Virus record (IMG/VR): IMGVR_UViG_3300023174_009216
Direction: 5' to 3' (one strand)
Length of the DNA: 64,000 bases
From: a virus
Taxonomy: Duplodnaviria > Heunggongvirae > Uroviricota > Caudoviricetes
Below are positions 21,292 to 64,000 of this stretch, one piece after another (position 1 is the stretch's first letter; each line of letters starts with the position of its first letter). The notes below the pieces were generated by a model. The model saw nothing but the letters and a program-made list of their open reading frames with translations, was not told the origin of the DNA and did not search any database. The translations under genes and the position numbers were made by a program.

Positions 21292-21771
21292 TTAAAGTGT
21301 TTTTAATTCTTGCTTAACTAACGTAAGTGCTTGTCCTAGAAGGTTTAATCCTAACCAAAAAGATGGATTATTAATACCTTCGGCATCTTCTGCTAATCCT
21401 ATTCCCCAGATGTGGTCCAAAGGTGATGCCTCTACAAACACCTTATCTCCTGTTTCTAGCATTTGTTCTTTAAGGTCTTGGTTCTGACTGAACTTAGCTA
21501 GATTACCTTCGTATACAATTGACAAGCAATTCTTATCCCAGGTGGTTTTGTCAAAGTTTTTAATCATTCTACCAAATCTTTTTTGTTCTCTGGGATTTGA
21601 TTCTTGCATGATTTGTTCAGCGATTTCTGTGTCGCCAAATAGCAAGGCTTTCTGATGCATCATGTATTGTTCGCATGAGTTGTATTCACGGCCATCGATG
21701 GTCATGTTAGCTTTATGCCATTGGGAATATATCCCATTCCAAAAAAATACGTAGTTGTCTGTTATTTTCAT
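21292..21771 (-). CDS. NADAR-domain protein (YbiA-like N-glycosidase)
   Basis: FFWNGIYSQWH...SCEQYMMHQKALLFGD...RFGRMIKNFD...EASPLDHIWGIGL follows the NADAR (DUF1768) pattern. Confidence 0.7.
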   Translation of the reverse strand: MKITDNYVFFWNGIYSQWHKANMTIDGREYNSCEQYMMHQKALLFGDTEIAEQIMQESNPREQKRFGRMIKNFDKTTWDKNCLSIVYEGNLAKFSQNQDLKEQMLETGDKVFVEASPLDHIWGIGLAEDAEGINNPSFWLGLNLLGQALTLVKQELKTL

Positions 21772-25327: not shown

Positions 25328-27067
25328 CTATTTTATTTTTTGAGAGTCATCTATCCAAGGTTCTATCTTTTTCATAATTTCATCTTTTGCATCAATCATT
25401 GCCATCACACGTTCATAAATACCAGGACTTTCCTCATAGAGATTTCTCCAGGATGGGTCTTTATCCCATCTATTTTTAAAGTCCAGCATTCTTATAAAAT
25501 TTCTAATAGTTGCTTCTGCAACTTTTCCCATAAATTCTGAATCAGGACTAGGAAATATAGCATCAAATACTTCGATAGAAACCCTATTCATTAATCCACC
25601 AGCAATTCTTGGATTCGAATTCTCATTTCCCCTGAAAGCATCTTTAATGGCATTCATTTCTCTCTCCCCAGCATTTAATAAAATACCCTGTATAACAATT
25701 TTAAAGAATATTGATTTAATTTCATTAAAAGAATCATCACTAGTATATCGATAAGAGCTCTTAATAAAATTATTAACAGCTTGGCCTATATTACGGTTAT
25801 CCCTATAGAAATCATCAGTTACTTTCTTTAATGCGAATTCCTCCCTAAAAACCCTTTTGATCTCATCAATCATTTCCTGCGGGTATCCTAATCTCTTTAG
25901 CTGATCATAGTACTTCTCACCATTCTGTTTTATATTATCATTATTAATATCACTAGACGAATAAACACCTCCGTCTTCAGAGATTGTTACACCTATAAGA
26001 TGTAATTTATCGCTCTCAGGAACCCCAAAATTAAATATATTAAGTTGAACTCTTCCACCTGCGTATGACCAGAATCTGGTGTCATTAATACACCAGGTAC
26101 CTGCAATAGAACATAATCCTTTCTGAGCATCCTCTGATCTTATAGAAAGAGCTACATATTGACCATCCTCATATAAGATAGCAACCCCAGGTTTCAGGGA
26201 TTCTGCATCTTTCAATATTTTATTGATATTAGATCCCATGGATTCTATAAATTTTTCCCCAAATTTTATAAGGGATTTAATAGAATCATAAGAAGATACT
26301 CTACTAAGAAATCTTTTTTTGATTGTTTCCGATTCTTCAGCAGCCTCTATTTTGGTTGCTATGTTGATGATCTTTTGTTTATCTTCTGGTCCTGATTTTC
26401 TATATTCATCCTTAAGGTTAACAACTCTACCCGCCACATATAAAGGATTACGAGGATCTGAAGCTGCACTGGTTGGGAGTGCATCTACAAGCCATCTAGC
26501 ATCTCTTTCTTTACCAATCTCCCTTAATGCATCTTCGAGCATCTCAAATCCAGATCTAATCTCAGATTGTGAATTGACCTTTTCAATTTGAGATTTTATT
26601 CCCTCTATTCTATCTACATCACCTGATTTTTCAGATCTCATTAAATCAGATTCTAGTTTTTTTAAGGTCTCTGATTTTGGAAGAATCTTAGCATATTGCT
26701 CAATATTCATTGGAAGACTTCCAAGGAAAGGTGCATATGTTCCTAATTTATTTTTAAGAACCACTAGGTCAGGAAGAGAAACATCCTGATCAAAGTGAAA
26801 TCTAACAAAAGCATTTAACAATCCCTGCTGATCAGCAACTATAGAATTTTTAATTTCTAAATATTCTTTATTGGAAAGTATTGCTATTTCTTCTTCTTTT
26901 GTTACCTCCGATGGTTTCTTTTTAGAAAACTTATTTATCATGAAGGATTTAGCTGCCTGTACGTTCTCATTTAAGATTTTTAAATAATCTTGGTTTTCCC
27001 ATGAAGATCCTATTCTTTTTATATTTTCATTCAGAGAAAAACTTTTAAAATTCTTAATTCTTTTCAT
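25328..27067 (-). CDS. putative capsid-targeted (CTS-like N-terminus) large protein, paralog A
   Basis: Start set at ATG 27067 giving MKRIKNFKSFSLNE (the track begins at an upstream GTG). Long blocks shared with 27092..28888, e.g. RSGFEMLED...ARWLVDALP..AASDPRNPLYVAGRVVNLKD. Confidence 0.6.
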   Translation of the reverse strand: MKRIKNFKSFSLNENIKRIGSSWENQDYLKILNENVQAAKSFMINKFSKKKPSEVTKEEEIAILSNKEYLEIKNSIVADQQGLLNAFVRFHFDQDVSLPDLVVLKNKLGTYAPFLGSLPMNIEQYAKILPKSETLKKLESDLMRSEKSGDVDRIEGIKSQIEKVNSQSEIRSGFEMLEDALREIGKERDARWLVDALPTSAASDPRNPLYVAGRVVNLKDEYRKSGPEDKQKIINIATKIEAAEESETIKKRFLSRVSSYDSIKSLIKFGEKFIESMGSNINKILKDAESLKPGVAILYEDGQYVALSIRSEDAQKGLCSIAGTWCINDTRFWSYAGGRVQLNIFNFGVPESDKLHLIGVTISEDGGVYSSSDINNDNIKQNGEKYYDQLKRLGYPQEMIDEIKRVFREEFALKKVTDDFYRDNRNIGQAVNNFIKSSYRYTSDDSFNEIKSIFFKIVIQGILLNAGEREMNAIKDAFRGNENSNPRIAGGLMNRVSIEVFDAIFPSPDSEFMGKVAEATIRNFIRMLDFKNRWDKDPSWRNLYEESPGIYERVMAMIDAKDEIMKKIEPWIDDSQKIK

Positions 27068-27091
27068 TTTCACATTTATATTAATTTCATC

Positions 27092-40001: not shown

Positions 40002-40890
40002 TTAATTACTTAGAGGTGCTTTGATTGCTGGATGTGATTGATAGTTTTCTAATTGAAAATCTTTTGGATCTAGGTGACCATATAGAGATTGGTTTTCTGA
40101 TAGAGATTTGTAAAACTCATCTGTCTTCATGTGTTTTAATGTAGGTAATTCAAAAGGCTGTCTTGTTCTTTTCGGAATGTTAGCTTCCATAAATTCTTGA
40201 CGTTTACCATCAACCAATGCGTCCATGCCAGTTTTTTGCAGAAACTCTATTCTTTCTTCTTCCGTGTATTCTCTACCTATCTGCTCTTTAGCCTGCTCAA
40301 TGTGGTTGCTATAAAGGTGTACATCACCCAAGTTACCAATCAATTCATCAGGAACCATGTTGACTTCTTTGGCTATGATTTCAAGTAGTAATCCATAAGA
40401 TGCTATGTTGAATGGTAAACCAAGGAAGGTATCTACTGAGCGTTGATTCCACATTAATGAGATTGCTCTGGTTGGAACTCTACTTGCTCTCATATCATCT
40501 TCTTCATTTTCTAACCCTGCTTCTAAACGTTCTAAAACTACATTATTCTTTTTACACCAGTCTCTTCTTTCTTCCAAACTCAACTCTCTCGTATATACTT
40601 GAAATCCATAATGACAGGGTGGCAAAACCATTGAATCCAAATCTGAACAGTTCCAGCTATTAACCATTAATCGTCTTGAGTCAGGATTTGTTTTGAGTTC
40701 AGAGATTAGGTTTGCGATTTGGTCTATTCTATATGTTGACATTCTCATCTCTGACCTATCAATACCTCTCCAATTTCTCCACTGCTTTCCGTATATTGGT
40801 CCAAGGTCTCCAAATCGATCAGAAAATTCTTTGTTTGTTTTAATTTTTTCTACAAACTCTTCTTTAGTATAAGGCCTTCCTTCTGGGTGT
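40002..40890 (-). CDS. thyA: thymidylate synthase, 3' exon / C-terminal portion (5' boundary approximate)
   Basis: GDLGPIYGKQWRNW, MVNSWNCSDLDSMVLPPCHYGFQVY (active-site PPCH) and GDVHLYSNHIEQ match ThyA. The N-terminal ThyA region is absent from this ORF and found at 41571..41831. Confidence 0.7.
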
Positions 40891-41570
40891 AAATGTTCTT
40901 TATTCATAAGTTTATTTTTTATATTCCCATTTGTAATTTCCTGATGATTTTCTTTTTCCTTTACACACATTACATATATTACTAGCCGCTAATTTTAATT
41001 CCCTTTGTATATCTGCTAAGCTATCCCATGTTTTAATATATTCATCATTTAAAGTGTATTGGTTTATTTTAATACTAGAAAAATGCAATACCCCAATTTT
41101 TTCAAACATACCATGATTCTCTCCAGATATTAAATAACCCTTGCCAAACATCGGATTGTTTTTACCGATCCTTTTACCTTTCCTGTTTTTCCTCATCAAT
41201 GATTTTGTATCTTCTGAGTGTTTACCGTTGCTACCTGGATCTTTTATATTCAACATTTCAAATTCACAATCTTTATATTGTTGCCAATAATATATCTCAT
41301 AATCATTTAGAATGGTTTGTGATACATCTTTTGGAAGTATTGTAAGAATTTGAAATTTATGATTTTCCCATCCGTATTTAATTATTGAATTATATAGCTT
41401 TTTTTGGCGACTGCAATGAGTTTTTTCATATTGATTAATTCTCCTTCTAATACACCAACTTTGGCCTATATAAATTTTATTTGTTGGGCTAACGATTTTG
41501 TATATTGCTATCATCAATCCTTATTTTGTTTCTCTAATCTTTCGCACTCTTTCAAATAAGCTTGATAACA
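40891..41570 (-). mobile_element. putative group I intron (or intervening mobile insertion) carrying a GIY-YIG homing endonuclease ORF within thyA
   Basis: ThyA N-terminal and C-terminal coding parts are separated by about 680 nt that encode a GIY-YIG/NUMOD protein. Architecture mirrors the T4 td intron with I-TevI. Splice sites not determined. Confidence 0.5.
40912..41514 (-). CDS. GIY-YIG homing endonuclease with NUMOD3-like motifs
   Basis: AIYKIVSPTNKIYIGQSWCIRRR...H (GIY-YIG core) plus GKRIGKNNPMFGKG and GENHGMFEK repeats. ATG at 41514 overlaps the TGA of the upstream thyA reading frame. Confidence 0.75.
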   Translation of the reverse strand: MIAIYKIVSPTNKIYIGQSWCIRRRINQYEKTHCSRQKKLYNSIIKYGWENHKFQILTILPKDVSQTILNDYEIYYWQQYKDCEFEMLNIKDPGSNGKHSEDTKSLMRKNRKGKRIGKNNPMFGKGYLISGENHGMFEKIGVLHFSSIKINQYTLNDEYIKTWDSLADIQRELKLAASNICNVCKGKRKSSGNYKWEYKK

Positions 41571-51448: not shown

Positions 51449-54046
51449 CTATCCTACACCACCTGAACTTAAGAGAGATTGTGAACTAGGTGGAATAGTA
51501 AATATCCACCCAGAACCAACCGTAGCTACAGCCTGGTTATTAGTGCTATTAGCTCCCGCATACCATGTTGATGCTGGGGATGCAACACTATGTTGAATAT
51601 TAAGATAATCACAATTTACGATTCCCCTTCCTTGTCTGCTCAATGAATGGGCTGCTGTTGTTGTACTATTGATAGTTATTAGAGCACCAGCGCTCCCTCT
51701 CACATTAAATCTAACAAAATTATTTACACTAGCTGCAGTGAATATTAAAGAATGAGCTGCAGTAGATGTGGTGTCTATAAAGTTTACAAATGTATTGTTT
51801 CCACTAAGGGTAAGAGTTCCTCCACCCCCACCTCTAGCATATTCTAATGTATAATAAACAATAGATCCCCCCGCAAAAGTAACAGCAGTAGCTGATGTAT
51901 CAGTAATAACTATTCTACTCTTTTGAGGATCAAGTCCCATGTTAGTGGAAGTAGCTAAATTCCAAACTGTACCTGTACCTGTAAGGGTCCAAGTCCCACT
52001 GCCCATATATAATACCCGGGTATTTGTGTTAGCGCTAGAAAATATTCCACAAGTTATATTAGCACCATTGTAAACATAGATCGAGCTATTAATATTGCTT
52101 GAAGTAAAAGTAAATGTTCCTGTACCAATATTAAAATTACCATTAATAAGAAATAATCCAGCTCCCGTAATAGTAACAGCAGCATTGGTTAAAGTAAATG
52201 TGCTATTAATATTGACTGTTCCCGCTGAAGATACTGCTAAAAGGGCATTAGAGTTAAATGCATCCACAAATGTAAATGTACCATTCAAAATCCCTGGTCC
52301 TAGTGTATCATTTAATGTTATGTTACCAGTAACAAGACTTTTACCGGCAAGAGTTATTCTTGAGTTGTTTAATAATGCATATCCAAGTCCTCTAAATATA
52401 AACGAAGGAGTAAGTGTCGGATTACCCATTGTGGAAACAAGTGTAAGATCCCCGTCTATAGTTATTACTTGGGAGCCTCCATTAGACCAAACCACGTTTG
52501 TTCCCCCGCTAAAAATAAGTTCAGCAACATTCCCTGTACTAAAAGAAACAACAGCTCCCCCAGTATTTGTTACATAAACTCTAGGATCACCTGTAGTACC
52601 TGGTGCAAGAGTAATAGATCCTGAACCGGTTCCACCTAATTCGCAGTATCCGTTACCAGGATACACCACAGTATTGAAACTGAGCGTTCTAGCAGATGTT
52701 TGAGCCCCTGTTACAATTATTGAATTGGTATTCCAGCCTAATCCTGTAACTGTAGTAGCTGTTATTAATGTACCAAGTCCGGTTAAATACAGGGTTCCTC
52801 CAATTTGAAAAGTTCTACTATTAGAATTAGATGTTGTAATCTGACCTATATAAGCATCAGTAGAAGTTACAAATAAACCTGCGGTTAAGGTAAAAAGGGC
52901 TGAAGTTGTAAAAGTTGCGCTAGCTGTAGCACCATTAATAAGTCCGCTATTTGTAATTGTTACAGGGCCACTAGTTGTAAAAGCATCAGCAAATGTATAT
53001 GCAACATTGTTTCCCACATCAGATATAGTTATTGTTCCTGTTACAAAACTTTTACCAGCACTTGTGATAGTTTGAGAATTTGCTCCTGCACCATTTAATG
53101 TTATAGACGGGGTAAGGACAGGAGCTCCCTGTGTAGATGTCAATGTAACATTACCTATACAAGTGAGTGTTTGAGATGCTGCATTAGACCACACAGCATT
53201 TGTTCCTGATTGAAATGTAATATTATTATAAAGTCCTGTTCCAAGACTTATAGCAGCTCCACCTGTATTAGTAACTATAATATTACAATAAACACCAGTG
53301 GCAGTAGTGGATGTAAATGTCATATTTCCAGATCCTGAACCAGCTAAATAAACATTTGTATTAAAAGGATAAAAAAATCCTGTTATAGCTAAAGATCTAG
53401 CTGAAGCTTGTGCTCCTGTTATATAAAAATCATTAACGTTAAATGAAAGATTTGTTTGTGTAGCTCCTATAGTTGCAAGAGTTCCTGCTCCTGTAAAGCT
53501 CATAGAATTAAAACTAATATTTCTAGTTAATGAATTACTAGTTATTGTAAAAGTACCAACACTTATAGTGGATCCATTTATACCACCTTGTGTCATAGTC
53601 AATATTCCTGATGTAGCAAATGCATCTGTACAGCTAAGATTTAAATTTGAACCACTAATAGTTATGTTACTACCTGGCCATGTTACACCATTAGATGTTA
53701 TATTAAAACCTGTTGTACCATTAAATGTTATAGCTCCTGCATATGTATATGTAGTAGATGCACTAAGAATTAACCCTCCAGATATAAAAACAGCTCCTGT
53801 ACCACTTTGAGCAAAAGTCCCTGTATAGTCTGATGTACCTGATAAGCCTCTAAAGCTAAGGCTTAAACATACTCTGTTAGATGTATTCACTGTAACTGTA
53901 CCACCACCTGAGTTAGCATCAAAATAAACATCATCAGCAGCTGTAGGTATAGAAGCTCCTCCTGTTCCACCAGATGTAGCAGACCATTTAGTACCTACAG
54001 TAGCATCCCAGGTACCAGTTCCTCCTACCCAAAATCTGTTTGCCAT
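51449..54046 (-). CDS. large fibre/structural protein, Gly/Thr/Ser/Asn-rich repeats (beta-helix-like)
   Basis: 865 aa with recurring GxG, TFT and NxT short repeats typical of tail-fibre-like proteins. Confidence 0.55.
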   Translation of the reverse strand: MANRFWVGGTGTWDATVGTKWSATSGGTGGASIPTAADDVYFDANSGGGTVTVNTSNRVCLSLSFRGLSGTSDYTGTFAQSGTGAVFISGGLILSASTTYTYAGAITFNGTTGFNITSNGVTWPGSNITISGSNLNLSCTDAFATSGILTMTQGGINGSTISVGTFTITSNSLTRNISFNSMSFTGAGTLATIGATQTNLSFNVNDFYITGAQASARSLAITGFFYPFNTNVYLAGSGSGNMTFTSTTATGVYCNIIVTNTGGAAISLGTGLYNNITFQSGTNAVWSNAASQTLTCIGNVTLTSTQGAPVLTPSITLNGAGANSQTITSAGKSFVTGTITISDVGNNVAYTFADAFTTSGPVTITNSGLINGATASATFTTSALFTLTAGLFVTSTDAYIGQITTSNSNSRTFQIGGTLYLTGLGTLITATTVTGLGWNTNSIIVTGAQTSARTLSFNTVVYPGNGYCELGGTGSGSITLAPGTTGDPRVYVTNTGGAVVSFSTGNVAELIFSGGTNVVWSNGGSQVITIDGDLTLVSTMGNPTLTPSFIFRGLGYALLNNSRITLAGKSLVTGNITLNDTLGPGILNGTFTFVDAFNSNALLAVSSAGTVNINSTFTLTNAAVTITGAGLFLINGNFNIGTGTFTFTSSNINSSIYVYNGANITCGIFSSANTNTRVLYMGSGTWTLTGTGTVWNLATSTNMGLDPQKSRIVITDTSATAVTFAGGSIVYYTLEYARGGGGGTLTLSGNNTFVNFIDTTSTAAHSLIFTAASVNNFVRFNVRGSAGALITINSTTTAAHSLSRQGRGIVNCDYLNIQHSVASPASTWYAGANSTNNQAVATVGSGWIFTIPPSSQSLLSSGGVG

Positions 54047-54782: not shown

Positions 54783-57293
54783 TTATACTATATACCAGTT
54801 TGCGTTATTAGATACTAAAGAGATTGCTGCATATTGAACTAAAAGTGTTGCTGTTGTTCCGTCATCTATTTTTTCAGTACCGCTTCCGTCTACTATTACT
54901 GAGTTAGCACCAGAGTCAGTTTTTTTAATTGTAAACTTAGCGGTGTTTCCCACAGCAGTTGGCAAGTTAATTGTTACTGTACCTCCTGCAGTTGCAGCAT
55001 CAACTAATATAATAATTTCACCAGAAGTTTGAGATGCATTATAAGTGGTGGAACTTTGTGATACTATTGTGTATGATCCACCAATACCAGATGTACCGGA
55101 AGATCCACTTGTTCCGGTAGATCCAGATGTACCAGAAGAACCAGAGCTTCCAGTTGATCCTGAAGAACCAGAAGAACCTGATGTCCCAGAAGAACCATTA
55201 GCACCTGATGTTCCAGAGGATCCAGATGTACCAGAAGAACCAGAGCTTCCAGTTGATCCTGAAGAACCAGAAGAACCTGATGTACCTGAAGAACCAGAAG
55301 AACCTGATGTACCAGAAGAACCATTAGCACCTGATGTTCCAGAGGATCCAGATGTACCAGAAGAACCAGAGCTTCCAGTTGATCCTGAAGAACCAGAAGA
55401 ACCTGATGTCCCAGAAGAACCATTAGCACCTGATGTCCCAGAGGATCCAGATGTACCTGAAGAACCAGATGTCCCAGAAGAACCATTAGCACCTGATGTT
55501 CCAGAGGATCCAGATGTACCAGAGGAACCAGAGCTTCCAGTTGATCCTGAAGAACCTGATGTACCAGAAGAACCATTAGCTCCTGATGTTCCAGAGGATC
55601 CAGATGTACCAGAAGAACCAGAGCTTCCAGTTGATCCTGAAGAACCAGAAGAACCTGATGTACCAGAAGAACCATTAGCACCTGATGTTCCGGAAGAACC
55701 AGAAGAACCTGTTGATCCTGAAGAACCAGATATACCAGATGTTCCGGAAGAACCTGAAGAACCTGTTGATCCTGAAGAACCTGATGTACCAGAAGAACCA
55801 CTAGCGCCTGAAGTACCGGATGTACCAGAAGAACCATTAGCACCTGATGTTCCAGAGGATCCAGATGTACCTGAAGAACCTGATGTACCAGAAGAACCAT
55901 TAGCTCCTGATGTTCCGGAGGATCCAGATGTACCAGAGGAGCCAGAGCTTCCAGTTGATCCTGAAGAACCTGATGTACCAGAAGAACCATTAGCTCCTGA
56001 TGTTCCGGAGGATCCAGATGTACCAGAAGAACCATTAGCTCCTGATGTTCCGGAGGATCCAGATGTACCAGAAGAACCATTAGCACCTGATGTTCCGGAG
56101 GATCCAGATGTACCAGAGGAACCAGAGCTTCCAGTTGATCCTGAAGAACCTGATGTACCAGAAGAACCATTAGCACCTGATGTTCCGGAAGAACCAGAAG
56201 AACCTGTTGATCCTGAAGAACCAGATATACCAGATGTTCCGGAAGAACCTGAAGAACCTGAAGAACCTGAAGATCCGCTTGTTCCAGAAGAGCCATTAGC
56301 ACCTGATGTACCTGAAGAACCTGTTGATCCGGAAGAACCTGTTGATCCGGAAGATCCTGATGTTCCTGTAGATCCTGAACTACCTGTTGAACCAGATGAT
56401 CCTGATGTACCTGTAGATCCTGATGTACCGCTTGAGCCAGAAGAACCTGATGTACCAGAGGAGCCTGTTGATCCTGATGTACCCGATATACCAGATGATC
56501 CAGAAGTTCCTGATGAACCATTAGCTCCTGAAGTTCCTGATGAACCATTAGCTCCTGATATTCCAGATGTCCCTGATGTACCAGGTGATCCTGTTCCTGA
56601 CGTTCCAGAAGAACCTGAATTTCCAGAAGATCCTGATGATCCATTAGATCCAAGAAACATCCAGGATATGGAATATTCTTTTCCTACTTGTAAACTTCCA
56701 TTGTATGATAATGCACTAAATAATGTATATTCAACAGTATTAACATCACTTAATGCCACATCGCTAACAATATAAATCCCACCAACTGTGTGATCATTAA
56801 CTTCAACTAGTTGGAGTATTAATTTTTGATTGTTGTTATCCTCCCAATTCTTAGCTGCATTATGCCAGTTATCTATAACTGACCCATAGACATCAAAATC
56901 ATAGCTAATTCCAAATTTAGTAACAGAAGATAATGTAGAGCTATTAGCTTGGAAGCTCCCATCGCTAACAGATCCAACTAAAGGTCCTTCATATTGAAAT
57001 CTTAAAGAATTACCTCCATCATTTCCTGTTTGTCCTGATGATCCCGATGTTCCACTAATTCCAGAGGATCCTGATGATCCGCTTTCCCCCGATGTTCCAG
57101 ATGTGCCATATGTTGCTCCAGATGTACCAGAAACACCAGAAGATCCCGATGTTCCTGTACCACCTCCTGAAATTTGTATCTCATCCCCTAGGCCATTATA
57201 AAATGTCCCATCATCTGATCTCTGGACAACGTGTTGAAATGTCTCAGAAATCTTTTGATTGGTAAGATTAAAATTCGGATTATTTCCAGGCAT
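54783..57293 (-). CDS. collagen-like (Gly-X-Y triplet repeat) fibre protein
   Basis: 836 aa. Central region of about 530 aa is uninterrupted G-S/T/A/N-S/T triplets (GSS GTS GSS GST ... GAN GSS GTS). Globular N- and C-terminal domains. Confidence 0.65.
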   Translation of the reverse strand: MPGNNPNFNLTNQKISETFQHVVQRSDDGTFYNGLGDEIQISGGGTGTSGSSGVSGTSGATYGTSGTSGESGSSGSSGISGTSGSSGQTGNDGGNSLRFQYEGPLVGSVSDGSFQANSSTLSSVTKFGISYDFDVYGSVIDNWHNAAKNWEDNNNQKLILQLVEVNDHTVGGIYIVSDVALSDVNTVEYTLFSALSYNGSLQVGKEYSISWMFLGSNGSSGSSGNSGSSGTSGTGSPGTSGTSGISGANGSSGTSGANGSSGTSGSSGISGTSGSTGSSGTSGSSGSSGTSGSTGTSGSSGSTGSSGSTGTSGSSGSTGSSGSTGSSGTSGANGSSGTSGSSGSSGSSGSSGTSGISGSSGSTGSSGSSGTSGANGSSGTSGSSGSTGSSGSSGTSGSSGTSGANGSSGTSGSSGTSGANGSSGTSGSSGTSGANGSSGTSGSSGSTGSSGSSGTSGSSGTSGANGSSGTSGSSGTSGSSGTSGANGSSGTSGTSGASGSSGTSGSSGSTGSSGSSGTSGISGSSGSTGSSGSSGTSGANGSSGTSGSSGSSGSTGSSGSSGTSGSSGTSGANGSSGTSGSSGSTGSSGSSGTSGSSGTSGANGSSGTSGSSGTSGSSGTSGANGSSGTSGSSGSSGSTGSSGSSGTSGSSGTSGANGSSGTSGSSGSSGTSGSSGSSGSTGSSGSSGTSGSSGTSGANGSSGTSGSSGSSGSTGSSGSSGTSGSTGTSGSSGTSGIGGSYTIVSQSSTTYNASQTSGEIIILVDAATAGGTVTINLPTAVGNTAKFTIKKTDSGANSVIVDGSGTEKIDDGTTATLLVQYAAISLVSNNANWYIV
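55060..56660. repeat. nucleotide tandem repeats encoding the Gly-X-Y region
   Basis: Near-identical 9/27/45/63-nt periodic units, e.g. ggatccagatgtaccagaagaaccattagcacctgatgttccagag recurring many times. Confidence 0.8.
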
Positions 57294-57295
57294 CT

Positions 57296-58105
57296 TTATC
57301 TCCTATTTAGTGATGGCATTACCTGTACCGATACTTTCTTAGCCGATGAGACTTTGAAAGGACTTTCCCAAGGAATAAAAATGATGTCATCTACTATTAT
57401 TTCTAGACAAGCTTCACCAATTGTTCCATCAGGAAATACGGACAGTTTTTTTAATGGGACCACGCAGGTTCCATCTTTTCTTACTGTGCCATCAAAAACT
57501 AAATTCCAGAGATCTGTTTTTAATACTAATCTTGCAATGGTATTTTCGGGATTACCCCCTTCTACTGTTACTTTACATTCGAATGTTTCATCCGAATCTC
57601 TATGAAAAATATATTCTTTCTTTCTTCTGATCAACTCGGGCATCGGTTCATCTTCGTAGAAATAGTCAGATTCTTTTATGGGTTGTATCTTTGATGGCGA
57701 TTTTTTTTGAGCAGACTCAGTGTTTTTAATTTTCTTCTTTTTAGGAGCTTCTTCTTTAGATTCTGTAATGCCCTTTTTACTTTCTAAAAGGAATTCCTCA
57801 AAGGGTGATAGCTCTTTCTCTTTTATTTTATTTGATTCTTCTGCTTGATTTTTTTCTTTCCTTTCAGGCGAAAATTTTTTCTTTATGCTATTTAGTGTTT
57901 CATTTACACTATTTAATGTTTCTTCTATAGAATTAGATGGTGCTAATGTAGGCGGGGGAAGAGCAGGTCTGTTAGATTCGTTTAGATCTGGATTTTCTTT
58001 AAATCTGTTACCTAGCGTTGATCTAATAAGATCCTCAACAGATCCATGTATCTGTACAGAATTTTGTTGATTAAGTCCCTGAAGAATTCCACCTATTAAG
58101 CTCAT
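57296..58105 (-). CDS. hypothetical Lys/Glu-rich protein
   Basis: 269 aa ORF. Confidence 0.45.
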   Translation of the reverse strand: MSLIGGILQGLNQQNSVQIHGSVEDLIRSTLGNRFKENPDLNESNRPALPPPTLAPSNSIEETLNSVNETLNSIKKKFSPERKEKNQAEESNKIKEKELSPFEEFLLESKKGITESKEEAPKKKKIKNTESAQKKSPSKIQPIKESDYFYEDEPMPELIRRKKEYIFHRDSDETFECKVTVEGGNPENTIARLVLKTDLWNLVFDGTVRKDGTCVVPLKKLSVFPDGTIGEACLEIIVDDIIFIPWESPFKVSSAKKVSVQVMPSLNRR

Positions 58106-58147
58106 TGTAAAATTATCTATTCTTTAGTACTCTATGTATCCCTTTTT

Positions 58148-58681
58148 TTACTTAAGAGTTAATAGGTACTTAAATTTGGAAACTGCTCCAAGTAATTCAT
58201 CCATTATGTTTAAAAGATCGCTAGATCCTTTAAATACCCTTTCAGTACTTTCCCTTAATTGCTCAATAACATTTATTACCCCAGATAGCCACTCCTCAGT
58301 GTTAACATCTTCATAATCAAGAATATTAAGTTGTCCTCCAAATCTTAATCTTTCATCTTTCATATATCCCTGATAAGCTTCAACCAATGTATCTAGAATA
58401 TCGTCTACAGAATCATAGGTGGCACCAGCACCTGAATGTTCAGAGAAAGATTTTGTTTGCCAATGAAATGCTTTTAATTGTACATGAAATTCAACTAGGC
58501 TTCTAAAGAGAGCATTCATATCAAGGATCCCCATTGTTGGCTCATCAGAATCAGTATTTTTCTGGTCGCGAGAATCAACAGGTTCTACTTCTAGATCATT
58601 AGTGGTATCGATTTCATCGCTGTTTACCTCCATATCATCCTGTTCGTTCACTCTTTTTCTAAAATCCATAAAATTCCTCAT
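58148..58681 (-). CDS. hypothetical acidic protein
   Basis: 177 aa ORF. Confidence 0.45.
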   Translation of the reverse strand: MRNFMDFRKRVNEQDDMEVNSDEIDTTNDLEVEPVDSRDQKNTDSDEPTMGILDMNALFRSLVEFHVQLKAFHWQTKSFSEHSGAGATYDSVDDILDTLVEAYQGYMKDERLRFGGQLNILDYEDVNTEEWLSGVINVIEQLRESTERVFKGSSDLLNIMDELLGAVSKFKYLLTLK

Positions 58682-58715
58682 AGTATTTTTTTATTTATAT
58701 ATCTATGAGAAAGAA

Positions 58716-59873
58716 TTAAAAAAGTGCTTTAACTAAAAGTAAATTAGGGGAGAGCGGTTGATATCCCATAACTTCTATAAATCTATTGATGGGATCTAAG
58801 ATGGTACGGTTAAATTGTGCATCAAAATCTATAGGAGGTGCAAGTTCGTATGGATAAGCTCCGTTTAAATAGCCGAAGACATTGTTTTCTTGCTCGCTAT
58901 TGACCGCTACAAAGTAATACTTGATTTTCTCTGATGAACGAATTAGCGAGTATTTTGCCTTGTATTTTGAGTTATTAAGGATATAGTTATGATACCCAGA
59001 TGCTCTAACATGCATAGGGCATCCTTTTGCTACCTCAAATCCTGTTGTATCGTTTAGAATAAATTTTTCTATATTATTAACACCAACACCTATAGAGATA
59101 GCATCAGGCTTCTGAATCTTAAATTCAGATTTAATTTCCCTTAGCATTTTTACAAACGTCCTTAGATCAAAATTTTTACCTGTTTGGAAGATATGCTTAA
59201 GTAAAAGAATAAGTTTTTCTCTTGCAAATGGAGGGGTTCCTCCTTGAACTATTTCAATACCTGTGGGCTTAATTCTTGAAAGATCAGCATAATGTTTTCC
59301 TGGTGCTTCGTATGTTAGATTAACAATGTACTTTTTCTTACCTAAGAAAACCGCATTTCTTGATATGGTTTCCAGTTCAAAGTCTTGGTGATTATCAGTG
59401 CTCCATTTCTTAGCATAAACATTAAAACAATTGTTTAAATATTCAGCTAATCTGTTCTTGTTTATATTTAAAATAAGATCAAGAGGTTCACAATCAAATT
59501 CACATGAAGCTATAATATTTCCAAAGTTAACATAGTTAGAATCTGTGTCTGCATAAATTATCATTTCTGCTGTTACAGGTCTAACATTTCTAGCACCTAT
59601 TTTTTCATGAAGCTCTGTGTCTAAATGCCAATGCTCATGAAAATACCTATTGATTACTTTCTCTGCAAACTTAACAAGATCCTGTCCCTGAAGGGTTACG
59701 CTTTCTGCAACATCAGAATTGAAGCATGCAAAGTAGGCGTTTCCCGTTGCTCCGTAGATACTATTAAGTGTTAGCTTAATTCCTTGTTCTTCGTTTTTAT
59801 AATCCGCAGACATCTTTTTAAGCCTGCTGATTTCCTTCTTGATTTCTTCAACACTTAATTCTTCGTAATTCAC
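58716..59873 (-). CDS. DNA polymerase B family, C-terminal fragment (T4 gp43-like, motifs B and C only)
   Basis: EEQGIKLTLNSIYGATGNAYFACF...TLQGQ...YADTDSNYV aligns with T4 gp43 ERQGRKILINSLYGALGNIHFRYY...GDTDSVYV. Lacks motif A and the exonuclease domain. 385 aa. Confidence 0.75.
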   Translation of the reverse strand: MNYEELSVEEIKKEISRLKKMSADYKNEEQGIKLTLNSIYGATGNAYFACFNSDVAESVTLQGQDLVKFAEKVINRYFHEHWHLDTELHEKIGARNVRPVTAEMIIYADTDSNYVNFGNIIASCEFDCEPLDLILNINKNRLAEYLNNCFNVYAKKWSTDNHQDFELETISRNAVFLGKKKYIVNLTYEAPGKHYADLSRIKPTGIEIVQGGTPPFAREKLILLLKHIFQTGKNFDLRTFVKMLREIKSEFKIQKPDAISIGVGVNNIEKFILNDTTGFEVAKGCPMHVRASGYHNYILNNSKYKAKYSLIRSSEKIKYYFVAVNSEQENNVFGYLNGAYPYELAPPIDFDAQFNRTILDPINRFIEVMGYQPLSPNLLLVKALF

Positions 59874-59885
59874 TATTTTTATTTT

Positions 59886-60650
59886 TTAAACTTCAACTAA
59901 TCCTATTGCAATGATTGAATTGCTTTCTTCTGAGATAACTACTATTCTATTTTCTTGAACATGAAAAGATGAATTTTCCTGATCAATAAAATTAAATTGA
60001 TTCTTGTAGATTGTATAATTTGAATCCTCTTTGTATTCAGGCAAAGGACCATCTTTAACTATATTGTACTGAAAAGAATTACCTTTAACTGAAAGTCCAT
60101 TTGCATGAACCTGGAAATTAAGAAGTTCCTCTGAATTACTTTCTATGGTTGTTAAAGAGCTTATCTTAGAAAATGAGTCTTTAGAAACATTAAATGATAT
60201 AATTGCTCCTTCGCTGGTGTGTATGGTTTTTTGTATTTTATCTTCTATATAAGATAGCAAAGAAATATCTGCACATTTAAATTTGATATTAATACTTGGG
60301 GAATACACTCTAAATCCTGTAGCAATCAAAGCAGAATCCATCGTCTGTGCAGTGAACTCAATATATGTTTCTTCCTCCGGTCCAAAATATTTAAAAACGT
60401 CTATAAGTTTTCCTATCTCTAGTATTCCTATTTTTACTCTGCTAGGGCTAGAATCACCATCAAAAAAATCATCTATTGTCGATCCAACAAATTTAATGAC
60501 AGATTTATCTGGTGTTCTCACTTTAGCAAAAAATTCTCTGCCTTCTAATTCTAATATAATAGATCTGTCTACCATTTTCAATTTCTTCAAAAAAGTAATT
60601 AGATTCCCCGAATTAGTAATTCTAAAATTTAATTTTAATTCTTTTTTCAT
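59886..60650 (-). CDS. sliding clamp-like protein (T4 gp45-like)
   Basis: 254 aa. N-terminal LKLNFRITNSGNLITF resembles T4 gp45 LLKNFATINSGIMLKS. Adjacent to the polymerase fragment. Moderate confidence. Confidence 0.45.
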   Translation of the reverse strand: MKKELKLNFRITNSGNLITFLKKLKMVDRSIILELEGREFFAKVRTPDKSVIKFVGSTIDDFFDGDSSPSRVKIGILEIGKLIDVFKYFGPEEETYIEFTAQTMDSALIATGFRVYSPSINIKFKCADISLLSYIEDKIQKTIHTSEGAIISFNVSKDSFSKISSLTTIESNSEELLNFQVHANGLSVKGNSFQYNIVKDGPLPEYKEDSNYTIYKNQFNFIDQENSSFHVQENRIVVISEESNSIIAIGLVEV

Positions 60651-60689
60651 TCTCTTTTAATTATAAGATTTATATTCTTTAGCTTGCAT

Positions 60690-62123
60690 TTAGTTATTTG
60701 TTTCCTCTTCTCCGTCTACTTCCCCGTTTATGATTATTTCCTCCTCTATGTGATCTTCTGGGTTCCAAACCTGTATTCCATTAAAAGTGTCACTAACAGA
60801 ATTCATAATGAGTGAGGATTGTTTGATAGTATTTTTAGAAAGTCTATTCCATTCCTTAATTACTTTTTTCACAATAATTTCTTGCTCCTTTATGGCGCTC
60901 TTGATTTCTTTACCACTCTTCTTGGTTTCCTCTATTTTTTGTTTTGTTATCTCTATCTCGTTAGATGATAATTTTATCAAGGGTATAGCTTCTAATCTAT
61001 TTTTAATCCATGTTTGAAATTGTTTTAAGAATTCTATAATTTCATCATTATCTCTTTTATTAGCAGACATGAATACTAAGAACTTAAGTTTAGCTTCTAA
61101 AAATTCTAATTCTCTGTCATTATAAAATGAATCTCTCACTAATCTTTTTAAAAGAACCTCCTCCTTATGAACCCTGAATTGATCAAGGTATTCCTCAACA
61201 GATGTGTATTCAAGGACTGCCCCGTCTCTAACAAGCACTATGTTTTCTGTAACTATCTGCTGGGTCTCTTTTTTTATCCTATCGCTTATCTCCTTAAATT
61301 GATCATCACTGCATTTAAATTTCAAAGAGAATTCAACCTCCTCTTTAGATCTGTTATCCATTCTATAATCTATTCCTGATATCTCTAAAATCCTATTAAT
61401 TCTTTCTAGAAAAGAAGCATATCTTGTTAACGGTGAAAGACTAAGTACCCCAATGGTTTTTGTTTTAGGATCTGAAGAAAACTGGCCCTCTATTAACCAG
61501 GCAGATCTTATTCCATCCACTCTTGAGATCTTTCCTTTAAAACCCTTAAAATAAGGCTTTATTTTTCTTGTCACGTCACCATTAAGATATGCAACAATAT
61601 CATCATGCTTTCGTGGAAGTATATTAGATCTATATCCAACTGCTATACCAACTATATGCGTGGACAATCCTATTGGATATGTAACATGCAACCAGTCATA
61701 TCCACCCTCCTCATTCTCGATGTTTAGATCCTTATGCTCATCTATAATTGATTTATATCTACTAGATATCCTAACAGAGGTGTATCTAGGAGCGGACGGG
61801 GTGGGATTAACAGGGGTTCCAAAAAATCCATCTCCCTCCATTATCAAATCACCACATCCAAAAGGCCTAGCAAGTTTTGAAATTGCGGAGGAAAGTGAAG
61901 AATCTCCGTGGTGGTATAGCTGAGTTCTAAATACCTCGCCTACAACACCTATGGTCTTATTAAATGATGTTGGGGACTTCTGTAGAATTAATCTTTGAAC
62001 AGGTGTAAGACAGTCATAAAAATTAGGAATCCCCCTACTCTGTATAACATAAAGGGCGTATTTTCTATAATCTTGATCTATTTGATCTGGTATACTAATT
62101 GTGTTTTTATTCTGACCGCTCAT
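60690..62123 (-). CDS. type II DNA topoisomerase subunit with catalytic Tyr region (T4 gp52 / GyrA N-terminal-like)
   Basis: DCLTPVQRLILQK, YHHGDSSLSSAI, GDGFFGT and APRYTSVRIS correspond to the GyrA/ParC/gp52 motifs LKPVQRRIL, YHPHGD, GNFGS, AARYTE. 477 aa. Confidence 0.7.
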   Translation of the reverse strand: MSGQNKNTISIPDQIDQDYRKYALYVIQSRGIPNFYDCLTPVQRLILQKSPTSFNKTIGVVGEVFRTQLYHHGDSSLSSAISKLARPFGCGDLIMEGDGFFGTPVNPTPSAPRYTSVRISSRYKSIIDEHKDLNIENEEGGYDWLHVTYPIGLSTHIVGIAVGYRSNILPRKHDDIVAYLNGDVTRKIKPYFKGFKGKISRVDGIRSAWLIEGQFSSDPKTKTIGVLSLSPLTRYASFLERINRILEISGIDYRMDNRSKEEVEFSLKFKCSDDQFKEISDRIKKETQQIVTENIVLVRDGAVLEYTSVEEYLDQFRVHKEEVLLKRLVRDSFYNDRELEFLEAKLKFLVFMSANKRDNDEIIEFLKQFQTWIKNRLEAIPLIKLSSNEIEITKQKIEETKKSGKEIKSAIKEQEIIVKKVIKEWNRLSKNTIKQSSLIMNSVSDTFNGIQVWNPEDHIEEEIIINGEVDGEEETNN

Positions 62124-62170
62124 CTAATTTATTGTTTACTATCTTTTTATCATAAAAATAAATAAAATTC

Positions 62171-62198
62171 CATAAAAAAGAGGCTTTAAAAGCCTCTT
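62171..62198 (-). terminator. rho-independent terminator-like hairpin (AAGAGGC...GCCTCTT) with T-run on the minus strand
   Basis: 7 to 10-bp GC-containing stem immediately 3' of the 62230..63591 stop, followed on the minus strand by TTTTTTATG. Confidence 0.6.
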
Positions 62199-62229
62199 TA
62201 GAAAATTATCGATTTAATATTATTTTTTA

Positions 62230-63591
62230 TTATGATTCATCGTCATCTTTAGACTTACTTTTAGAACCTGATGTTGCAGTAAGCTTTTTAAGTTCTGATC
62301 CTGATAATGCTCTATCCAGGTCTTCTATCACATCCACCTTATATTTGCTTTTATACAAATTCTTAAATTTCTTTGCTGTGCTGCTATTAGTAACAACCGA
62401 ATTATAAAGATCTATAAGCTTATCCTCGTCAGAAAAAGTTTTATCTAATTCATTTCTAATCTCATCTGCCACGTCATCCATTTCATCTTCCGCTCTTTCT
62501 TCTGATGCTTCTTTTTTAGCCTTTTTAGCAGAGCTTAATTTTTCATCCTCCTCAGATTTTTTTTCCTCCTCCTCAGATTTTTTAGCGGCAATACCGTCTG
62601 CATCCTTTTTTTCTATGTCTCCTAATTCATCATTCTCTATCAAAGCGTAGAGATAATTTCCACCGTTCTGTGATGCTTCTTTAAGTGCAGTCATAAATTT
62701 ATTAAAATCTTCGCCATTTGCAAATACCTGGCATCCTGCAGAATATGGTCCTACACAAACACCTGGTCCTTTAGATCCTCTATGAATATTAATTCCATAT
62801 CCGTCACCCTTATCTGGATTTCCTGGTTCGTATGTATCTATATCGCTACTACCTGGTTTGTATCTTTCTATTTGCATTGGACCCGCTTGAAGTAATGCTT
62901 CATGCTCTGTTGGGCTTCCTTTTTTATGTATGCCTATTTTATATTGATATACGCCAGGCTGCATTATAGCAACCCCTGCTGCATTTAAGGATCTGCTAGG
63001 ACTTCCATAATAAGAAACCGAAGGAGTTGTTGTTACTGCATAAGTTTCTGGTGTTTCATTAGGCTTAGAAGGATCTATGATCAATAATTTATCTATAAAT
63101 TTATCACCCTCTCTTTTTTTAATCTCTAGCTTTTCTCTAATTCCCAATATAAATACTTTATTGCTTCCCGCATAAGGCTTAGACGCTCCAGTTGCTCCTG
63201 TTGCACCTGTCGCTCCAGTTGCTCCTGTTCCACCAGCTCCGTAATTAGAACCGGTTAACTCTTTAGATATTTCAATATACGCATCTTTTTTAGATAATGC
63301 ACCATCAGGATATACAAAAAGATCTATGATCCATTTATTGGTTTTGTTGACAGGAGAAATTTGATAAGCGCTGCTACCACATGCGGTGTAAGGTAATCCA
63401 CCTTTAGTCTCTTTTGTGTCTGCAATTTTGGAATAATCCTTGTCTTCAAATCCTAACTTAGATAATGCTTGCTGTACAAGAGCTGTTCCTATTCCGCCTG
63501 CGCTAAGATCCATTCCTAATCCTGAATCTTTTTTGTCCTTCTCCTCTTGCTCGAAAATGAACTGTTTAAAAGAAAATATTCTTCTATGCAT
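62230..63591 (-). CDS. putative capsid-targeted (CTS-like N-terminus) protein with Gly/Ala/Thr linker
   Basis: MHRRIFSFKQFIFE N-terminus. GAGGTGATGATGATGATGAS linker (compare GATGEGAAGATGATETTT in 6384..7559). Early segment GIGTALVQQALSKLGFEDKDY is PG-binding-like. Highly charged C-terminus. Confidence 0.55.
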   Translation of the reverse strand: MHRRIFSFKQFIFEQEEKDKKDSGLGMDLSAGGIGTALVQQALSKLGFEDKDYSKIADTKETKGGLPYTACGSSAYQISPVNKTNKWIIDLFVYPDGALSKKDAYIEISKELTGSNYGAGGTGATGATGATGATGASKPYAGSNKVFILGIREKLEIKKREGDKFIDKLLIIDPSKPNETPETYAVTTTPSVSYYGSPSRSLNAAGVAIMQPGVYQYKIGIHKKGSPTEHEALLQAGPMQIERYKPGSSDIDTYEPGNPDKGDGYGINIHRGSKGPGVCVGPYSAGCQVFANGEDFNKFMTALKEASQNGGNYLYALIENDELGDIEKKDADGIAAKKSEEEEKKSEEDEKLSSAKKAKKEASEERAEDEMDDVADEIRNELDKTFSDEDKLIDLYNSVVTNSSTAKKFKNLYKSKYKVDVIEDLDRALSGSELKKLTATSGSKSKSKDDDES

Positions 63592-63620
63592 TTGTATATT
63601 TAAATATTACTTCTATTTAT

Positions 63621-63920
63621 CTATTTCCCTCCTGAAAAAAGGAAATATATTAATCCATTCATAAAAGCATTGAATCCAGAGGATATAAATCCCCAGAAAA
63701 GAAATCCTATATAAGGATGAAAATATTGAGGAAGATCTCTAAAACAGAGAAATAATAACATCCCTGCCCAGAATCCACAGCATTGATGACATGTGAGAAC
63801 GCCCTGCATAAATCCGCTTTTGATCATTAACCAATTTCTTGGCTTATCAAAAATACTTCCTTTTACTAAAATGTGAGTCAGTCCCCAAGATGTTAGGAGA
63901 AAAATTAAAATTGTTGTCAT
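63621..63920 (-). CDS. small membrane protein
   Basis: 99 aa with three or four hydrophobic helices. Confidence 0.45.
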   Translation of the reverse strand: MTTILIFLLTSWGLTHILVKGSIFDKPRNWLMIKSGFMQGVLTCHQCCGFWAGMLLFLCFRDLPQYFHPYIGFLFWGFISSGFNAFMNGLIYFLFSGGK

Positions 63921-64000
63921 AATATAAAAAGTTCTTTTTCTTTTATTTCTTCTAGCATAGATATATCCTCTTGGTTTCTAGGTTTAGGAACTCTAATATG

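Follow-up and report, generated by a model that had tools for sequence, protein, structure and literature searches.

We report that a tailed phage (Caudoviricetes; IMG/VR record IMGVR_UViG_3300023174_009216) very probably replicates its DNA with a heterodimeric family B polymerase of the T4/RB69 gp43 type, encoded by two separate genes whose products most likely assemble non-covalently. The 64,000-nucleotide stretch analyzed here, referred to as the window, carries the gene for the C-terminal half of the enzyme (C-half), directly downstream of a predicted sliding clamp gene. The N-terminal half (N-half) is a protein of the same lineage, P0282, which is encoded outside the window. As motif A and exonuclease motifs I to III are found on P0282 and not on the C-half polypeptide, the enzyme belongs to the gp43-type family B polymerases only as a two-protein set. 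Breaks at the tip of the fingers domain have been described before in T4-related phages; here the two halves are scattered, and this holds across a very large group of uncultured giant phages. The elements of the window that bear on this finding are the following.

60690..62123, minus strand: gene for a gp52-like topoisomerase II subunit, first of the block (Pfam DNA_topoisoIV, E 1e-40; phrog_551)
59886..60650, minus strand: predicted sliding clamp gene, 254 aa, PCNA-like two-domain fold (AlphaFold2 and Foldseek)
59874..59885, minus strand: 12-nt A-rich spacer AAAATAAAAATA, separating the stop codon of the clamp gene from the C-half's GTG start codon
58716..59873, minus strand: polymerase C-half gene, 385 aa (Pfam, PHROG, RB69 alignment, dN/dS)
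59778..59873, minus strand: N-terminal head of the C-half, residues 1-32, the start of the second finger helix and this gene's side of the break
59751..59777, minus strand: motif B, KLTLNSIYG, C-half residues 33-41 (kept in 119 of 120 family members)
59538..59549, minus strand: motif C, DTDS, C-half residues 109-112, the catalytic aspartates (120 of 120 members)
59328..59339, minus strand: KKKY, a KKRY-type primer-binding motif, C-half residues 179-182 (116 of 120 members)
58719..58742, minus strand: C-terminal tail, LLLVKALF, C-half residues 378-385, a putative clamp-binding peptide
58148..58681, minus strand: DUF5856 gene, directly downstream of the C-half and last of the block (Pfam DUF5856; phrog_858)

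The C-half corresponds to the last 45% of a family B polymerase of the T4/RB69 type and comprises the second finger helix with motif B, the palm with motif C, the KKKY motif, the thumb, and a C-terminal tail. Pfam DNA_pol_B matches it over profile positions 134-450 of 453 (E 1e-14), and phrog_1918, a 382-position PHROG profile annotated as 'DNA polymerase', matches it from end to end (E 1e-62). The alignment with RB69 gp43 covers residues 532-813 of that protein, and the C-half aligns to residues 479-821 only of the gp43 of cyanophage S-SM1; identity of the lineage's polymerase sequences to T4-type gp43 is ~30%. The Pfam, PHROG and RB69 alignments agree with an initial annotation of this DNA, which had described the gene as a gp43-like C-terminal fragment with motif C and the thumb. 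That annotation set its start about 40 residues ahead of motif B; the ORF does begin before the motif, at a distance of 32 residues. The head was placed by alignment with the contiguous gp43 proteins of S-SM1 and T4 and with gp43B of phage 25, and homologues share the start position. Motif C is uninterrupted (YADTDSNY), KKKY aligns to GKKRY of RB69, and motif inspection of the ORF found no motif A and no exonuclease motifs, as had been claimed. The tail is hydrophobic, conserved across the family as LLLV-x-AL[F/Y], and resembles the end of T4 gp43, SLDFLFG; by analogy, it may bind the clamp.

The gene immediately upstream had been called clamp-like. This label is right for a predicted two-domain beta-alpha-beta clamp fold, since Foldseek ranks PCNA and bacterial beta clamps first among the PDB matches of the modeled ORF (prob 1.00, TM 0.62-0.70). 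The AlphaFold2 model was computed from a 99-sequence alignment built from homologues of a representative search and has a mean pLDDT of 96.7 and a pTM of 0.92, against a pLDDT of only 36 for the single-sequence model. When a profile of the clamp family was compared with the PDB, the top five matches were all PCNA (E 0.05-0.1). The ORF itself had no match in Pfam, PHROG or PDB sequences (phmmer) and none in phages by tblastn even at E 1; an 8-sequence profile likewise gave no identification, and hhalign gave a probability of 1.4% against T4 gp45. No clamp loader was identified in the window, where the AAA ORF at 1949..2983 matches generic ATPase families only. Synteny in relatives reveals a conserved block of topoisomerase, clamp, polymerase C-half and DUF5856 genes, and in every freshwater-lineage relative examined the C-half directly follows the clamp gene. 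The 12-nt spacer contains no Shine-Dalgarno sequence, and promoter and terminator scans around the genes returned sites no more numerous than in shuffled sequence.

An ORF with motif A and the exonuclease motifs, which the initial annotation had proposed to seek elsewhere, was found in P0282. This 469-aa protein runs from the N-terminal domain through the 3'-5' exonuclease and motif A of the palm to the first finger helix. It matches Pfam DNA_pol_B_exo1 and positions 16-145 of DNA_pol_B, and it aligns with residues 177-433 of RB69 gp43. The DNA_pol_B ranges of the two halves (16-145 and 134-450) abut, with nothing missing. Exo I to III read DIE, NWFGYD and YNAID, and the exonuclease domain is complete; motif A reads DFASLYP. 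The finger helix carries RKSAK and has an Arg/Lys pair that matches R482 and K486 of RB69. The protein ends in the tail sequence QECENKIIQLEEILKNK, the stop codon of its ORF is conserved among homologues, and its gene adjoins a dUTPase/MazG-like gene.

Alignment with phage 25 43A/43B and with the gp43 proteins of T4 and S-SM1 locates the break at the fingertip, with the R..K pair on its N-terminal side and motif B on its C-terminal side. The earlier placement of the break between motifs A and B, now on P0282 and the C-half respectively, thus holds and is refined. With motif A on the N-half and motifs B, C and KKKY on the C-half, the active-site residues are divided between two proteins. Because the site is that of Aeromonas phage 25 gp43A/43B, this is the known fingertip split and not a new break point. 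Each half is an ORF in its own right, with separate start and stop codons, and there is no intein at the break. Their 469 + 385 aa come near the 833 aa of the contiguous S-SM1 gp43, and their ends at the break add only ~15 residues relative to a contiguous gp43.

The initial annotation had placed the missing part far off, beyond the window, and this was borne out. Searches of the 64-kb window by tblastn, with full-length S-SM1 gp43 and the N-half of LR756500 as queries, detected no N-terminal polymerase sequence, and a Pfam scan of the ten largest other ORFs of the window returned no polymerase. ORF 25328..27073 gave a weak tblastn match (E 0.58) to a polymerase query and was dismissed after reading. 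A contig 100% identical to the window likewise shows no N-half over the 14 kb that lie upstream of its C-half, and a megablast comparison of window positions 56-64 kb with the phage collection gave no match. The exact C-half is carried by NODE_556 of ENA assembly ERZ2680843, which shares 8,028 nt with the window at 100% identity; the longest contig with P0282, 87,983 bp, is of the same size as this C-half-bearing contig. Logan run SRR7812574 contains both exact proteins. A 10-kb stretch downstream of the N-half does not overlap the 14-kb stretch that precedes the C-half, and the gap in the window's lineage is therefore >24 kb; it is at most ~83 kb, both values being bounds and not read coordinates. 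Six related contigs carry both halves on the same strand, the N-half upstream, with gaps of 16.3 to 22.0 kb. Pairwise divergences of the N- and C-halves co-vary (r = 0.98; seven genomes, 21 non-independent pairs), and the dN/dS values of both halves fall within 0.03-0.06.

The analysis shows the domain content, the break point, the absence of an intein, a partner within this lineage, and purifying selection acting on each half; a two-subunit polymerase is the most likely reading. Translation of each half begins at a start codon of its own, and the two proteins most likely associate without a covalent join. In the complex, an antiparallel hairpin would form from the two finger helices and the palm segments would together make up a single active site, so that neither half alone could polymerise. 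We infer the physical association, the catalytic activity and the binding to the clamp from phage 25 gp43A/43B, an engineered split Pfu polymerase, and the two-gene polymerase of PhiKZ. According to a passage of PMC2988022 that cites Petrov 2006, the phage 25 halves co-purify and are active, and Pfu polymerase split at the fingertip retains full activity (PMC3061061).

The two proteins could cooperate and also act apart, the N-half as a proofreading or repair exonuclease and the C-half pre-loaded on the clamp, with polymerase activity switched on through the separate expression of both genes. The completeness of the exonuclease domain would suit such roles, as would the distance between the halves and their different neighborhoods, the dUTPase/MazG-like gene on one side and the clamp gene on the other. 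One arrives at this by inference, however; gene order is no proof of regulation, and T4-type gp43 needs no such mechanism. We regard it as quite unlikely. Also unlikely is that the scattering is non-neutral, in that the C-half, with its thumb and putative clamp-binding tail, and the clamp, its constant gene neighbor, would form a DNA-bound processivity module and the N-half, whose gene lies beside nucleotide-sanitising genes, a separately regulated or exchangeable catalytic and proofreading module. If that were true, huge phages would control replication or repair through the supply or exchange of subunits and not through one fixed polymerase.

It is very unlikely that the C-half is a decaying remnant or duplicate while a full-length polymerase elsewhere does the work, an alternative the initial annotation had itself named. 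The dN/dS of the C-half is 0.03-0.05 (against relatives at 84-90% identity), its catalytic motifs are all kept in 116-120 of 120 homologues, and 116 of the 120 closest homologues, at identities as low as 63%, measure 381-392 aa. All three speak against decay, as does an equally conserved partner that is always without motif B: among the best 240 relatives of the N-half, motif A occurs in 240, motif B in 0, and a DTDS string in 2. No full-length family B polymerase was found in the best 120 C-half clusters (<=392 aa) or the best 240 N-half clusters (<=495 aa), and the complete, closed genome LR756500 has no copy besides the split one.

A split intein might join the halves post-translationally by protein trans-splicing, as in Nanoarchaeum PolB or in 'fractured genes', where split inteins occur with free-standing endonucleases (Dassa et al. 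2009, PMC2677866). Relatives do have this arrangement in the same polymerase: the C-part of LR756500 and Lak-A2 is broken at motif C, between DTD and S, Pfam Intein_splicing matches both pieces, and in LR756500 a free-standing endonuclease ORF lies between them. That site is motif C, however, and not the fingertip, and motif C is intact in the window's C-half. The same scan that finds intein fragments in LR756500 and Lak-A2, which serve as a positive control, gave no Intein_splicing match in the window's C-half or in P0282, and the break in this lineage has no endonuclease gene beside either half. Relative to the position at which a contiguous gp43 runs on, the N-half stops ~15 residues later, while the start of the C-half lies inside the finger helix; this N-half end and C-half start are too short to leave room for intein fragments. 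The C-half N-terminus also lacks a His-Asn followed by Cys/Ser/Thr junction. We consider covalent joining of this kind extremely improbable.

Just as hard to credit is a trans-splicing group I or group II intron that joins the coding parts at the RNA level, even though related huge phages commonly carry group I introns (PMC12880540) and gene 43B of phage 25 contains a group IA2 intron, per its annotation. Intron families gave no match in 56000..64000 at E up to 1. The C-half start, 12 nt past the clamp stop codon, is conserved in homologues, as is the N-half stop codon, and in complete huge-phage genomes the halves are on opposite strands, 101-281 kb apart (618 kb in LR756501; linear record coordinates). 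With no Intein_splicing match in either half, only ~15 extra residues and no intron-like RNA nearby, the intein or trans-splicing option of the initial annotation finds no support. Finally, the window is metagenome-derived and a nearby repeat gene does break assemblies, but the chance that the split is an assembly or frameshift artefact, which an assembly correction would remove, is negligible: identical ORF boundaries and neighbors occur in independent ENA, JGI, Logan and IMG/VR assemblies, and a stand-alone C-half is also found in curated complete genomes and in the cultured phage PAU.

Petrov et al. (2006 and 2010), cited in PMC2988022 and PMC3061061, reportedly described bicistronic, fingertip-split gp43A/43B in T4-related phages, namely Aeromonas phages 25, 31, 44RR and 65 and Acinetobacter phage 133. 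The two T4-type genes are neighbors separated by 2 bp to 3 kb, and a homing endonuclease frequently occupies the interval (PMC3061061); that such halves are adjacent was correctly stated in the initial annotation. The two-subunit polymerase proposed here resembles phage 25 43A (498 aa)/43B in polymerase family, in a break between the finger helices without an intein, and in the distribution of the motifs, with A in the N-terminal partner and B and C in the C-terminal one. It differs from phage 25-type halves in the distance between the genes, >24 kb in the window's lineage and 16-22 kb in close relatives, and in a C-half fixed directly downstream of the clamp gene. Given the ~30% identity to T4-type gp43, the split is probably independent or much older.

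Sphingomonas phage PAU, a cultured jumbo phage (NC_019521), has separate polymerase halves in gp105 and gp110. Its stand-alone N-half (487 aa) precedes a dUTPase gene, an arrangement shared with the window's lineage, and a stand-alone C-half (404 aa) begins at the same fingertip position; the PAU halves, however, are just 2.4 kb apart with four genes between them, and are ~29% identical to the window's proteins. In Chryseobacterium phage MA9V-2, ORF 193, which lies beside that phage's N-half, was tested as an adjacent C-half and is not one. The chimallivirus PhiKZ encodes a two-gene family B polymerase, DNAP-N gp82 and DNAP-C gp50, from non-adjacent genes, and its subunits form a stable 1:1 complex by cryo-EM and activity assays (PMC13648687). 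In PhiKZ, too, the N protein carries motif A and the C protein motif C, whereas the break lies inside a large palm-insertion domain and not at the fingertip, the total is 1369 aa compared with 854 aa in the window's lineage, and a clamp-derived monomeric subunit (Rhc) stands in contrast to the PCNA-like clamp gene of the window phage. For Methanobacterium thermoautotrophicum, a passage of PMC3061061 cites Kelman et al. 1999 for split family B polymerase genes 85 kb apart. This enzyme is likewise a two-subunit family B polymerase with distant genes and no intein; unlike ours it is archaeal, with a break in the palm, ~83 residues C-terminal to the fingertip position.

The rarity implied by the initial annotation does not stand. 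Separated halves also occur in PAU, with the same break, in Lak megaphages, and in phages of 460-735 kb. The stand-alone halves form large families, all of the best 120 C-half and 240 N-half clusters being stand-alone, and half-length polymerase profiles, matched by both halves, are already present in PHROGs. Dispersed family B halves are also documented in PhiKZ (PMC13648687) and, within the cited passage of PMC3061061, in Methanobacterium. In the literature we found no explicit description of a dispersed fingertip split in huge phages, which is not proof of absence.

The finding leaves the understanding of how such polymerases work unchanged. It means that half-length 'DNA polymerase' genes in jumbo and huge phages are not to be read as fragments or pseudogenes, and that the halves need to be paired before the family B polymerase serves as a phylogenetic or completeness marker. 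Over evolutionary time, family B polymerases withstand a permanent break at the fingertip, with both halves under strong purifying selection. Once separate, the two genes can drift apart. The distance is >24 kb here; in Lak phages and those of 630-735 kb, where the halves occupy opposite strands, it is 101-281 kb (LR756501, 618 kb). For T4-type phages a span of 2 bp to 3 kb had been reported, and these distances extend it. The comparison suggests an ordered set of states, from adjacent halves (phage 25) through 2.4 kb (PAU) and ~10-20 kb (this clade and LR756500) to >100 kb (Lak and 630-735 kb phages), and suggests that the series includes a further, split-intein break at motif C (LR756500 and Lak-A2). 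Such a series could serve the study of how essential multi-domain enzymes are dismantled by mobile elements and genome rearrangement.

The polymerase ORF of the window and the gene upstream of it are as follows.

58716..59873, minus strand, C-terminal half of a family B DNA polymerase (C-half; GTG start, 385 aa)
59886..60650, minus strand, predicted sliding clamp gene (254 aa), ending 12 nt ahead of the C-half GTG codon

All genes around the C-half lie on the minus strand. The C-half matched only positions 134-450 of the 453-position Pfam DNA_pol_B profile (E 1e-14) and matched phrog_1918 ("DNA polymerase", 382 positions) end to end in PHROG (E 1e-62). It aligned with residues 532-813 of RB69 gp43 and, in cyanophage S-SM1 gp43 (833 aa), with residues 479-821. 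Motif B (KLTLNSIYG, residues 33-41), an intact, unbroken motif C (DTDS, residues 109-112) and KKKY (residues 179-182) were identified, and the protein ends in a conserved hydrophobic tail, LLLVKALF, similar to the end of T4 gp43 (SLDFLFG). A motif check of the ORF revealed neither motif A nor exonuclease motifs. Given this motif and domain content, the initial annotation had described the ORF accurately; the N-terminal lead that it placed before motif B exists, but comprises 32 residues, not about 40.

N-terminal polymerase sequence was absent from all 64 kb of the window. It was likewise absent from 14 kb of sequence preceding the C-half on NODE_556, a contig of ENA ERZ2680843 (87,983 bp) that encodes the exact C-half and matches 8,028 nt of the window at 100% identity. 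The complete huge-phage genome LR756500 (462 kb) encodes a stand-alone 472-aa N-half; its C-part lies approximately 10 kb further downstream, and no second PolB copy was found in that genome. Used as a query, this N-half retrieved a large family of 465-473-aa N-halves with Pfam DNA_pol_B_exo1 and a partial DNA_pol_B. A clade-specific member, from an IMG/VR contig that also bears a 68%-identical C-half, led in turn to P0282, the 469-aa N-half of the window's lineage, which was therefore reached indirectly. P0282 and the exact C-half are both present in Logan run SRR7812574. P0282 matched DNA_pol_B_exo1 and DNA_pol_B positions 16-145, abutting the region matched by the C-half, and the N-half matched phrog_2062 (502 positions), which like phrog_1918 is a half-length "DNA polymerase" PHROG.

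The distance between the two genes in the window's lineage is known as bounds only. Sequence reaching 10 kb downstream from a 100%-identical N-half and sequence reaching 14 kb upstream from the C-half do not overlap, which puts the gap above 24 kb and bears out the expectation that the motif-A-bearing part lies far from the C-half and outside the window. The longest contig of P0282 equals NODE_556 in size (87,983 bp), suggesting that P0282 lies on it, in which case the gap is at most ~83 kb. In six related contigs the halves are on the same strand, with the N-half upstream and a gap of 16.3 to 22.0 kb.

The N-half ends in ...LYAMRKSAKKKYQECENKIIQLEEILKNK and the C-half starts with MNYEELSVEEIKKEISRLKKMSADYKNEEQGIKLTLNSIYG. 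[quoted passage not shown] The N-half holds the Arg/Lys pair equivalent to R482 and K486 of RB69, which are triphosphate ligands (PMC3061061), while the C-half supplies the motif B lysine. The catalytic aspartates are likewise divided, motif A on the N-half and motif C on the C-half. Because ligand residues and catalytic aspartates are shared out in this way, one active site must combine both proteins.

The split itself is real, and a two-subunit polymerase, the main proposal of the initial annotation, is its best explanation and very probably correct. We infer that the halves associate, that the enzyme is catalytically active and that the clamp is bound. The same annotation also allowed for joining by an intein or by trans-splicing, and neither option found support. 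Intein_splicing matched neither half in a Pfam scan that did pick up intein fragments in both LR756500 and Lak-A2, and the two ends together add only ~15 residues relative to contiguous gp43. Joining by RNA splicing is countered by the lack of intron families in 56-64 kb of the window, by the conserved start and stop positions of the halves among homologues, and by genomes in which opposite strands carry them. A pseudogene or duplicate is countered by dN/dS values of 0.03-0.05 (C-half) and 0.03-0.06 (N-half), by catalytic motifs retained in 116-120 of the 120 C-halves and in 239-240 of the 240 N-halves, by the absence of motif B from all 240 N-halves, and by pairwise divergences of the two halves that co-vary across seven genomes (r = 0.98, 21 non-independent pairs). 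An artefact is countered by ORF boundaries and neighbours that repeat across ENA, JGI, Logan and IMG/VR assemblies, which are independent of each other, and across curated complete genomes.

The nearest 120 C-half clusters (63-96% identity) are nearly all 381-392 aa long, and the nearest 240 N-half clusters do not exceed 495 aa. Contigs bearing these clusters reach 474 kb; equal sizes of cluster contigs suggest that contigs of 473,921, 277,518 and 262,772 bp hold both halves. The gene block topoisomerase II subunit, clamp, C-half and DUF5856 was found in all freshwater-lineage relatives examined, and a dUTPase/MazG-like gene follows the N-half. In distant genomes a stand-alone C-half starts at the fingertip and the N-half match is far off, on the opposite strand.

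Distances separating the best matches to the two halves in complete genomes (541-735 kb)
LR745206, ~101 kb apart, opposite strands
LR756502, ~132 kb apart, opposite strands
Lak-A2, ~221 kb apart, opposite strands
LR756504, ~281 kb apart, opposite strands
LR756501, ~618 kb apart in linear record coordinates, opposite strands

Some relatives carry further breaks. In LR756500 (L011, LR756500.1, 3783-7183) and Lak-A2 (L193 11914-14065) a split intein interrupts the C-part a further time, at motif C (DTD|S), and Intein_splicing matches both pieces in each genome. The LR756500 polymerase, with its stand-alone N-half, is therefore encoded in three pieces. Between its C-part pieces lies a free-standing 567-aa ORF (DUF7487 and REase_MTES_1575), and a 647-aa paralogue of this endonuclease-like ORF sits directly downstream of the N-half. 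Beyond the paralogue, the gene for the large subunit of ribonucleotide reductase (614 aa) has an intein N-fragment at its end and looks like another fractured gene (paralogue and reductase gene, L011 13686-17488).

The ORF upstream of the C-half had no match in Pfam, PHROG or PDB sequence searches. A library-wide search returned a family of 141 representatives, 99 of which were used for an AlphaFold2 model (mean pLDDT 96.7, pTM 0.92). In the PDB the model comes closest to PCNA and to bacterial beta clamps (prob 1.00, TM 0.62-0.70); with the family profile, five PCNA chains rank first, at only E 0.05-0.1. The protein is thus a clamp by predicted fold, without being recognised as belonging to a curated sequence family. 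Its LR756500 homologue lies just upstream of the C-part, with one 169-aa ORF in between.

Elsewhere in the window, an 836-aa ORF (54783-57293) consists mostly of Gly/Ser/Thr triplet repeats (GSSGTSGANGSSGTSG...); NODE_556 stops inside it and k141_436321 is ~720 nt shorter at the same place, reflecting either repeat-length polymorphism or assembly collapse. An 865-aa ORF rich in Thr/Ser/Gly/Asn with repeated internal segments (51449-54046) may be a fibre or surface protein. Tandem paralogous ORFs of 581 and 598 aa (25328-27073 and 27092-28888) share long identical stretches, neither with a Pfam family. A 949-aa ORF (32436-35285) has two Fibrobacter succinogenes major domain copies (Pfam Fib_succ_major, E 1e-59) and adjoins a 643-aa ORF without a family (30482-32413). 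Auxiliary genes typical of large T4-like phages (21768-23273, 4648-5736 and 40002-40970) encode a nicotinamide/nicotinate phosphoribosyltransferase, an RNA ligase that contains a PHA02142 OB domain, and a thymidylate synthase. Upstream of the polymerase locus, the DnaJ-like gene is called as 348 aa on one contig (L003 4911-5957) and as just 176 aa, covering the C-terminal domain, on NODE_556 (L004 5427-5957), although the two contigs are otherwise nearly identical.

Fingertip-split gp43 is established in Aeromonas phages 25, 31, 44RR and 65 and Acinetobacter phage 133, whose halves are encoded 2 bp to 3 kb apart, co-purify and are active, according to passages of PMC2988022 and PMC3061061 citing Petrov 2006 and 2010. 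Pfu polymerase cut at the fingertip behaves as wild type (PMC3061061). Aeromonas phage 25 shares the break point of the window's lineage but not its gene distance (>24 kb). In the cultured jumbo phage PAU (NC_019521; L201 3001-7230) the break is also the same and the halves are 2.4 kb apart, in the order gp105 (487 aa), dUTPase, three genes and gp110 (404 aa); PAU and the window's lineage both pair the N-half with a dUTPase-like gene. Distant genes are known from the Methanobacterium family B polymerase (85 kb apart; a passage of PMC3061061 citing Kelman 1999) and from gp82 and gp50 of PhiKZ, a stable 1:1 complex by cryo-EM (PMC13648687), but these break in the palm and a palm insertion, respectively, rather than the fingertip. 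The 101-281 kb separations (618 kb linear in LR756501) exceed the 85 kb of Methanobacterium, the largest found in the literature searched. That literature yielded no description of the dispersed fingertip split in the huge-phage lineage, which is not proof of absence. The present case is distinguished from known split polymerases by its gene distance, by a C-half fixed behind the clamp gene and by its occurrence in a very large uncultured clade. The split is mechanistically unsurprising but helps annotation and PolB-based phylogeny and offers an evolutionary series.
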